Assembly (NCBI RefSeq): GCF_009931435.1
Contig: NZ_CP043414.1
Reading direction: 5' to 3' (one strand)
Source of the DNA: Escherichia coli
Lineage (GTDB): Bacteria > Pseudomonadota > Gammaproteobacteria > Enterobacterales > Enterobacteriaceae
Length of the DNA: 64,000 nucleotides
Every line of letters begins with the position of its first letter. Position 1 is the first letter of the stretch. The notes below the pieces were generated by a model. It did no database searches and was not told the origin of the DNA. It was given only the letters and a program-made list of their open reading frames with translations. Position numbers and translations under genes: made by a program. Positions 5,271 through 5,993 of the stretch are shown here, piece after piece.

Positions 5271-5993
5271 TTACAATTTGTAGCATGACGGATATAGGAC
5301 AACATTAGGAAATCGGACAGAAAATTCATTATAATAAAATGACAACTTATCTCTTTCTCTCACGTTCTGTGAAATTTCACAAAAGTATAAACTGAGCCAA
5401 TATGCCTTTATATATAAAAAATACTCATGTTTATTATTATCGGAAAAAGCCAAGATTTGATTAAGGCCATCAAAAATATCTTTCTCATGATCTATATGTA
5501 CTCTTGATGATTTTACAATATCTTTTAATTCGCGGTAAATCTTATTAAATAGCGCAACCGATTCACTGTTATTGAATCCATAGTTGATAAAAAGACATGA
5601 TTTAACATCCGATATTAGCAAGTCGTCATAATTCATCTCTATTTCAGACAATTTCACGATATACTCAGCTATAGTATTACTTTGTAAGGACTCAACAACT
5701 GACAGTAAAACAGATGGATGCAATAATATTTCAAGAAGACTTTTATCGATATTTTTATACACATTTATTGCAAATTCATCATTCGTCCCATCGATGGTGT
5801 CAGATATTGAAAAAAATACATAATCGGGGAGTTCATACCACATATTAATTTTAATAATATCACGACACATATCTTCTAATTGTTGTAATCTATTACCTTT
5901 ATTCATAACAACCTTAATATTATATGGAATCTTTGGCGGAATCTTCTTAACTCTGAGGAATTTTACTAAACCTTTGTTAGAGAAAATATGCAT
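5271..5993 (-). CDS. Hypothetical protein, AT-rich orphan ORF (240 aa; alternative start at 5906 would give 210 aa)
   Basis: Long ORF in a very AT-rich segment; no recognisable motif; ATG at 5991-5993 lacks a clear SD, while the internal ATG at 5904-5906 has AAGG 6-9 nt upstream. Same strand as the vgrG-rhs island, downstream of the H-repeat remnant. Confidence 0.5.
   Translation of the reverse strand: MHIFSNKGLVKFLRVKKIPPKIPYNIKVVMNKGNRLQQLEDMCRDIIKINMWYELPDYVFFSISDTIDGTNDEFAINVYKNIDKSLLEILLHPSVLLSVVESLQSNTIAEYIVKLSEIEMNYDDLLISDVKSCLFINYGFNNSESVALFNKIYRELKDIVKSSRVHIDHEKDIFDGLNQILAFSDNNKHEYFLYIKAYWLSLYFCEISQNVRERDKLSFYYNEFSVRFPNVVLYPSCYKL

Follow-up and report, generated by a model that had tools for sequence, protein, structure and literature searches.

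Does the most AT-rich part of an Escherichia coli genomic segment hold a genuine gene, and what might such a gene do at the edge of an Rhs island? The window analysed here (the whole stretch of DNA under study, 64 kb in length, 49.5% GC) contains a minus-strand open reading frame (ORF) of 240 amino acids at 5271..5993. An earlier note, made from the sequence letters, had placed this ORF under unknown function and had listed an orphan immunity protein, an abortive-infection or defence gene, and a decayed ORF as candidates; a chance ORF in AT-rich DNA was the reading that it set against all of them. We have examined the ORF, its protein product, its homologs and their gene neighbourhoods, and the E. 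coli locus itself in order to choose among these readings.

The AT-rich open reading frame contains a conserved gene

The ORF runs from ATG to stop, just as the earlier note had it, and it does occupy the most AT-rich part of the window, for the 600-nt windows with the lowest GC content in the entire 64 kb (29%) start at 5301 and 5401. This unusual composition, and nothing further, speaks for a chance open frame. At the local composition, stop codons are expected about every 12 codons, and the probability of encountering none in 240 codons is about 6e-10. When the segment 5001-6110 was shuffled 2000 times, the longest open frame had a mean of 70 codons and reached at most 153, against 245 observed. 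The 5271-5993 ORF is therefore real. Homologs with conserved length and start occur in at least eight genera, and a chance frame retains practically no probability.

The gene itself is shorter than the ORF. An internal ATG at 5906 opens a 636-nt coding sequence (CDS) for 211 amino acids (MNKGNR...). The alternative start proposed by the earlier note thus stands, being conserved across genera, while the length given for it has to be corrected from 210 to 211 amino acids. The starts of all 11 homologs compared (53-91% identity) align with this ATG, PGAP calls the identical 636-nt CDS in other E. coli, and an AAGG motif resembling a Shine-Dalgarno sequence lies 6 nt upstream. On these three grounds we take the gene as 5271-5906 on the minus strand. 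The remaining 29 in-frame codons at the N-terminal side of the ORF (5907..5993, same strand) are specific to E. coli; in the alignments they are absent from every homolog outside this species, and they probably represent a leader rather than coding sequence. No promoter-like site was recognisable upstream of the gene on its own strand. Comparison with other genera gave dN/dS values of 0.25-0.32 (p<=1e-6), and the protein has clearly been under purifying selection.

An acidic, predicted all-helical protein of an unnamed family

The 211-amino-acid protein is acidic, with a pI of 4.9 (4.3-5.8 across the family) and a GRAVY of -0.15, and begins with the polar, non-hydrophobic sequence MNKGNRLQQLEDMCRD. 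An initial AF2 model made with 12 close homologs was weak (pLDDT 68.5), and Foldseek found no matches to it in the PDB. When distant homologs were supplied, AF2 predicted a soluble, all-helical protein of 13 helices with a pLDDT of 86.9 and a pTM of 0.81; structure prediction had been among the checks named in the earlier note. Fold searches returned family members or generic helical matches only, and neither PDB nor AFDB50 contained a structural relative from beyond the family. The polar N-terminus, as judged by reading the sequence, and the modelled soluble helical bundle are consistent with a cytoplasmic protein that has neither a signal peptide nor a membrane segment, which agrees with the earlier statement that no signal peptide and no obvious transmembrane segment could be seen.

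The earlier note had also recognised no motif, and searches of the collections bore this out. Pfam gave no match to the protein even at E<=10, and the 15 aligned family members were likewise without a match at E<=0.001. NCBIfam and PADLOC produced 0 matches, the best PHROGs match was non-significant (E=0.17), and nothing was found when PDB sequences were searched with the family profile. Among 5.8 billion proteins the family made up 17 clusters at a 90% identity cut-off, and among 1.84 billion it had 16 representatives at 50%; it was found only in Enterobacterales. Named members come from E. coli, E. albertii, Shigella flexneri, Salmonella enterica, Pseudocitrobacter faecalis, Morganella morganii, Xenorhabdus doucetiae and X. 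szentirmaii, to which fold and sequence matches add Proteus mirabilis, X. innexi and Superficieibacter. The window protein aligns end to end with its homologs at 26-64% identity, and C14, D39, Y50, E72, Q75, S76 and D100 are among the residues invariant in the family alignment. [quoted passage not shown]

Some NCBI and UniRef records call members of the family aminopeptidases, a name that its sources have given to several clusters. This name is almost certainly mistaken. Neither the searches of Pfam and NCBIfam, including those with the 15 aligned members, nor the sequence and fold matches in the PDB included a peptidase, and the invariant residues form no known peptidase or metal-binding motif; the NCBI label thus had no family, fold or motif match behind it in any search.

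Homologs directly follow EndoU toxin domains in other lineages

Analysis of the genomic neighbourhood of homologs, another check named in the earlier note, revealed a conserved gene order. The homolog lies directly downstream, on the same strand, of an EndoU_bacteria domain (PF14436), the EndoU ORF being intact in six lineages, and the order of EndoU and then homolog held in seven gut-bacterial lineages other than that of the window. Among the non-E. coli lineages whose context could be read, all but one have the homolog directly after an EndoU domain or a remnant of one. The gap between toxin and homolog is 3-16 nt, and in Proteus the two genes overlap.

In Salmonella enterica, VipA/VipB, Hcp, VgrG, DUF2169 and Tox-PAAR-like genes are followed by a 398-amino-acid effector, of which residues 282-394 match EndoU_bacteria (Pfam E=4.8e-14), and then, after a 16-nt gap, by the homolog. 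The order in Pseudocitrobacter faecalis is DUF2169, PAAR-like, a 272-amino-acid ORF, a 135-amino-acid EndoU ORF and the homolog. Xenorhabdus doucetiae has VgrG, DUF2169 and PAAR-like genes, a 1587-amino-acid Rhs protein ending in EndoU and, 3 nt further, the homolog. In Proteus mirabilis a fragmented Rhs precedes an EndoU ORF, which the homolog overlaps by 4 nt; this 203-amino-acid protein shares 36% identity with the window protein (E=8e-39). A metagenome contig presents EndoU, the homolog and RHS fragments. Morganella morganii carries a VgrG/DUF4123 island and then short toxin/immunity modules, in one of which a Pyocin_S-linker/EndoU protein is followed by the homolog; the module after this pair encodes a colicin-D nuclease and then its own immunity protein. 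The Morganella modules, which are short and have a Pyocin_S-like linker in common, form a long array downstream of a VgrG-DUF4123-deaminase effector (4400-12100 in locus L009). Their tips differ, some being EndoU or colicin-D nuclease with Colicin_immun and others of no recognised kind, and the array resembles a repository of toxin tips that can be exchanged.

Traces of the pairing are also seen where the toxin is damaged. Shigella flexneri has kept an 88-amino-acid C-terminal toxin fragment that is 71% identical to the P. faecalis toxin, and in E. albertii part of the toxin 3' end is left, with a frameshift (nhmmer E=5e-14). The X. szentirmaii homolog is an extended form of 401 amino acids with no toxin nearby. 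It has extra N- and C-terminal regions and adjoins flgN/flgM (8001-9206 in locus L016), and its cluster also contains forms of 335 and 123 amino acids.

Three delivery scaffolds carry the EndoU tip in these loci: Rhs in Xenorhabdus and Proteus, non-Rhs proteins linked to DUF2169/PAAR-like genes (including the 398-amino-acid effector) in Salmonella and Pseudocitrobacter, and the Pyocin_S linker in Morganella. The T6SS adaptors DUF2169 and DUF4123 are encoded upstream of the effector. The toxins beside family members constitute one clade, about 60-81% identical, and their domain is basic, with a pI of 9.7. In the pairs compared, the partner proteins have diverged more than the toxins (27-57% against 64-81% identity), and the distances of toxins and partners correlate with a Pearson r of 0.82 (10 pairs, which are not mutually independent).

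The gene occurs in E. coli without a detectable toxin

No EndoU signal was present in the 64-kb window by tblastn, by protein HMM or by DNA HMM (nhmmer). Upstream of the E. coli gene, Smith-Waterman comparison with shuffled sequences disclosed no significant toxin remnant, apart from one borderline case, a 17-nt match at the homologous position to the end of the E. albertii pseudo-toxin, which 19 of 1000 shuffles also reached. Nor did the 5907..5993 extension show significant similarity to the toxin 3' end. DNA of the P. faecalis EndoU toxin was found by blastn in 0 of 5,426 complete E. coli genomes, at a sensitivity of roughly 65-70% identity or more, and the protein homologs of this toxin came from Xenorhabdus, Proteus and unnamed metagenome sequences, none of them named E. 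coli. Because no toxin was detected in the window or, at the DNA level, in E. coli genomes, we class the E. coli gene as an orphan.

The gene was present in 237 of the 5,426 complete E. coli genomes (4.4%), as a single chromosomal copy, and all the copies examined adjoin yddH. Full length without a frameshift was kept by 193 copies; the other 44 are truncated to 250 nt or less. Since the cognate toxin clade was found at the DNA level in none of the E. coli genomes, any protection that the gene affords would be directed against other genera.

The orphan gene lies in a variable cassette at the edge of a VgrG-Rhs island

Comparison with K-12 by blastn delimited a strain-variable cassette of low GC content (29-39%) at 4926..6108, between the 3' end of yddH and the end of an IS element. 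These 1183 nt replace a 273-nt pptA segment of K-12 (8966-9238 of the K-12 locus). The IS junction at 6109/6110 of the window, 204 nt upstream of the orphan gene, is common to K-12, where pptA adjoins it. The earlier note had missed two genes that it expected from K-12. The absence of pptA was confirmed by tblastn, and an H-repeat proved to be present and directly adjacent, as an ISAs1-family (H-repeat, ydcC-like) element at 6111..7375 on the minus strand with a broken transposase (NF033564 transpos_ISAs1, E=2.6e-93, 260-amino-acid ORF). Two IS copies of locus L001 share 97% identity with the element, and K-12 ydcC 96%; the transposase of the window element is divided into ORFs of 260, 134 and 43 amino acids, compared with 379 amino acids in the intact form of strain 2017-02-2CC and K-12 ydcC.

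On one side the cassette is flanked by narZYWV-yddE-nhoA-yddH, and on the other by the ISAs1-family element, an Rhs module and vgrG. The orphan gene is thus, as the earlier note put it, at the edge of the Rhs island, more precisely at the outer, IS-bounded edge of a VgrG/Rhs island, and the ISAs1 element separates it from the Rhs module. Heading the island is the VgrG (TssI) spike gene (12344..14488, minus strand; TIGR03361, E=8.5e-189). The PAAR-Rhs core with its C-terminal HExxH toxin tip (8025..12277, minus strand) is distributed over two overlapping ORFs because of a frameshift near 9325-9335, RHS_core NF041261 positions 1-988 falling in the ORF 9209-12277 and positions 990-1261 in the ORF 8025-9320. 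The split, at 9320-9340, looks to have been caused by a 1-nt deletion after '...HYHYDSQH' (cagcac-gcctggtg); either rhs is a pseudogene here or the sequence has an error at this point.

The HExxH motif is borne by the C-terminal tip of Rhs (8025-8500, minus strand) and suggests that the resident tip is a metallopeptidase-type toxin. Directly after it comes a 149-amino-acid ORF (7563..8012, minus strand), singled out by position and sequence, with the signal-peptide-like N-terminus MMKYLMVLLSLFSASVLG. This ORF matched no family in NCBIfam, PADLOC or PHROGs and is unrelated to the orphan protein. It is presumably the cognate immunity gene of the resident Rhs toxin and probably encodes a periplasmic immunity protein. 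With the resident tip being of a different, HExxH type and having its own downstream ORF, the orphan gene is not the partner of the resident Rhs toxin.

Several other features of the region deserve mention. At 7376-7486 on the minus strand, just outside the IS element and downstream of the resident immunity ORF, the 5' end of rhs PAAR is repeated over 30 codons (RHS_core positions 1-30). A second low-GC patch (14900-15700, 32-34% GC) between vgrG and yncG matches the yncH region of K-12, with which it is collinear at 97% identity; hence it is not strain-specific. E. coli 042 has 811 nt more between the IS element and the orphan gene, including an unannotated ORF of 186 amino acids, and in rhs-less E. 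coli the additional 811 nt with the 186-amino-acid ORF lie between the gene and the genes upstream. We considered this ORF of E. coli 042 as a possible toxin and rejected it, as it bears no resemblance to EndoU, has no Pfam match on record and is absent from the window. Rhs-less strains (L017, 7881-9642; L027, 7991-9753; L002, 7368-7928) contain 4-5 extra small ORFs in the interval from yncG to the immunity gene, of about 90-186 amino acids and with no Pfam match on record, possibly toxin fragments or orphan immunity genes arranged in a row.

Proposed assignment to EndoU immunity and its alternatives

A small protein encoded right after a toxic tip, and tracking that tip across scaffolds, bears the signature of cognate immunity among polymorphic toxins (Zhang et al. 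2012, PMC3482391; PMC9086364). The gene at 5271..5906 is real, conserved and constrained, and its relatives adjoin EndoU toxins in many lineages. Start conservation, the PGAP call, homolog context, the AF2 model and dN/dS together describe an orphan gene of an unnamed family, most likely one of immunity proteins cognate to the EndoU_bacteria toxins of the T6SS, that stands here without its toxin. Because the family matches no immunity family already linked to EndoU, it is gene context by itself that carries this assignment. A specific, testable assignment can take the place of the label 'unknown function', and of the candidates in the earlier note the orphan immunity protein is well supported by the toxin-then-homolog order in the seven other lineages. 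We infer that the protein would be expressed, would bind and neutralise the toxin, and may be of protective value at present.

A complete system could work as follows. The toxin domain would form the C-terminal tip of a VgrG-linked effector, either Rhs or DUF2169/PAAR-like-associated, and the immunity gene, situated 3-16 nt downstream, would presumably be co-translated with it. The immunity product would bind the basic EndoU RNase domain in the cytoplasm and block the cleavage of RNA, and the block would shield the producer and its kin. Binding might follow the mode of the solved toxin/immunity complexes of the BECR superfamily (PMC9086364). An acidic face of the protein that includes the conserved residues D39, E72 and D100 and an 'ESLQS' motif would then be predicted to lie over the His-His-Lys site of the toxin. 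In this E. coli, the toxin would have gone, leaving the immunity gene by itself in the low-GC cassette where the outer side of the VgrG-Rhs island borders on the IS element, from where it could act only defensively, against EndoU effectors injected by other Enterobacterales. It is possible, if somewhat doubtful, that the orphan is protective today, as a stand-alone shield in a minority of E. coli, an immunity acquired across genera, and with an immunity fold previously unrecognised. Such a shield might, tentatively, neutralise EndoU effectors from Salmonella, Proteus, Morganella and Pseudocitrobacter.

The same family membership would also allow the E. coli gene to be a functionless relic, left when a toxin module was deleted or replaced beside the IS element and now drifting to loss. 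A history of this kind would fit a locus with no toxin remnant, an IS junction close upstream and no promoter-like site, and a gene that is carried by only a small fraction of E. coli and is truncated in 44 of its 237 copies. Moreover, dN/dS among the E. coli alleles is 0.24-0.6, above some of the between-genus values, and the constraint within the species is marginally significant (p=0.02-0.05); together with the truncated copies this means that some E. coli copies are decaying. Nevertheless, the 193 full-length copies are free of frameshifts, alleles diverged by up to 9% at the protein level stay intact, and the synonymous excess is detected even within E. coli. Between the E. coli and E. 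albertii copies, neither of which has a working toxin, dN/dS is 0.27 (p=3e-8), although part of this divergence may predate the loss of the toxin. We regard a relic as possible, though rather unlikely. The copy in the window is not the decayed ORF that had been suggested, since it is intact, aligns over its whole length with distant homologs and shows a dN/dS of 0.25-0.5.

Two further functions would dispense with inhibition of the toxin. Gene context alone does not distinguish an inhibitor from a helper, and a predicted helical fold, like that of some adaptor proteins, would suit a chaperone, adaptor or activator of the EndoU effector. Such an accessory role is nonetheless very unlikely, as the DUF2169 and DUF4123 adaptors of the same loci are encoded upstream of the effector, whereas this protein always comes after the toxin tip, across three unrelated N-terminal scaffolds, and it persists in genomes without the effector, in which a chaperone would be idle. 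Since the association tracks the toxin domain across the three scaffolds, an immunity protein is favoured over a delivery chaperone. A low-GC, strain-variable cassette adjoining a mobile element could equally house an anti-phage defence or abortive-infection gene, as the earlier note had considered, and yet PADLOC recognised 0 families, the PHROGs match was non-significant, no recognised defence family was among the neighbours at any locus examined, these being T6SS and Rhs genes, and the recurrent partner is a secreted antibacterial toxin. We consider a phage-defence function highly improbable, and orphan immunity to EndoU toxins is the reading that we adopt.

Comparison with known toxin and immunity systems

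The ends of islands of the Rhs, CDI and T6SS types are well known to harbour orphan immunity genes and orphan toxin-immunity modules (PMC10469887). The orphan rhs modules of Salmonella (Koskiniemi et al. 2014, as cited in PMC10469887) are an example, and orphan immunity genes are discussed for V. cholerae, Pantoea and others. Like these orphans, the window gene is located at the outer margin of its island, here of the VgrG-Rhs type, further out than the resident toxin and immunity genes and beside an IS element, and is low in GC, horizontally acquired and strain-variable, with paired homologs elsewhere. Unlike many Rhs orphans, which come with a toxin-CT stub, the E. coli locus has no detectable toxin fragment, and unlike in the known cases its immunity family is undescribed.

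A bacterial EndoU RNase that is delivered between cells and a small neutralising protein encoded directly downstream are also found in CdiA-CT/CdiI of E. coli STEC_O31 (PDB 5HKQ), in which CdiI is the immunity protein of an anticodon nuclease with the EndoU fold (Michalska et al. 2018, as reported in PMC9086364). By analogy, this complex is likely a mechanistic template for the window protein, with the immunity protein binding the nuclease domain. The two differ in delivery, which is by CDI (type V) for CdiA of STEC_O31 and by T6SS for the EndoU toxins of the homolog loci, and in the immunity protein, CdiI-STECO31 being mixed alpha/beta (PMC9086364) whereas the window protein is predicted to be all-alpha. 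Among PDB sequences no chain matches the orphan protein, and the EndoU toxin itself has no significant match there.

Zhang et al. (2012, PMC3482391) linked the immunity families SUKH, Imm-SuFu and Imm28 to Tox-EndoU, and MafI is found beside a Salmonella PAAR-Rhs-EndoU protein (PMC10469887). As with these families, our homologs lie downstream of the EndoU tips of polymorphic toxins, and Imm28 has been described as mostly alpha-helical (PMC3482391), as is predicted for the window protein. No significant profile match to SUKH/SMI1_KNR4, Imm-SuFu, Imm28, MafI or CdiI was obtained with the orphan protein or with the 15 family members. Judged by these profile comparisons, the family looks like one separate from SUKH, Imm-SuFu, Imm28 and MafI and restricted to Enterobacterales.

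In conclusion, the concept is a familiar one, an Rhs island with a probable orphan immunity gene at its margin; it is the family that is new and unnamed. The assignment replaces 'hypothetical protein' and the unsupported 'aminopeptidase' with a testable function for a gene carried by about 4% of complete E. coli genomes, and also for the relatives that Salmonella, Shigella, Proteus, Morganella and Xenorhabdus carry. T6SS effector loci would be better annotated with this immunity family defined; Pfam and NCBIfam do not contain it, and it lacks structural relatives. Should the orphan still be functional, it would be a candidate determinant of differences among E. coli strains in surviving T6SS attack by Salmonella or Proteus in the gut.
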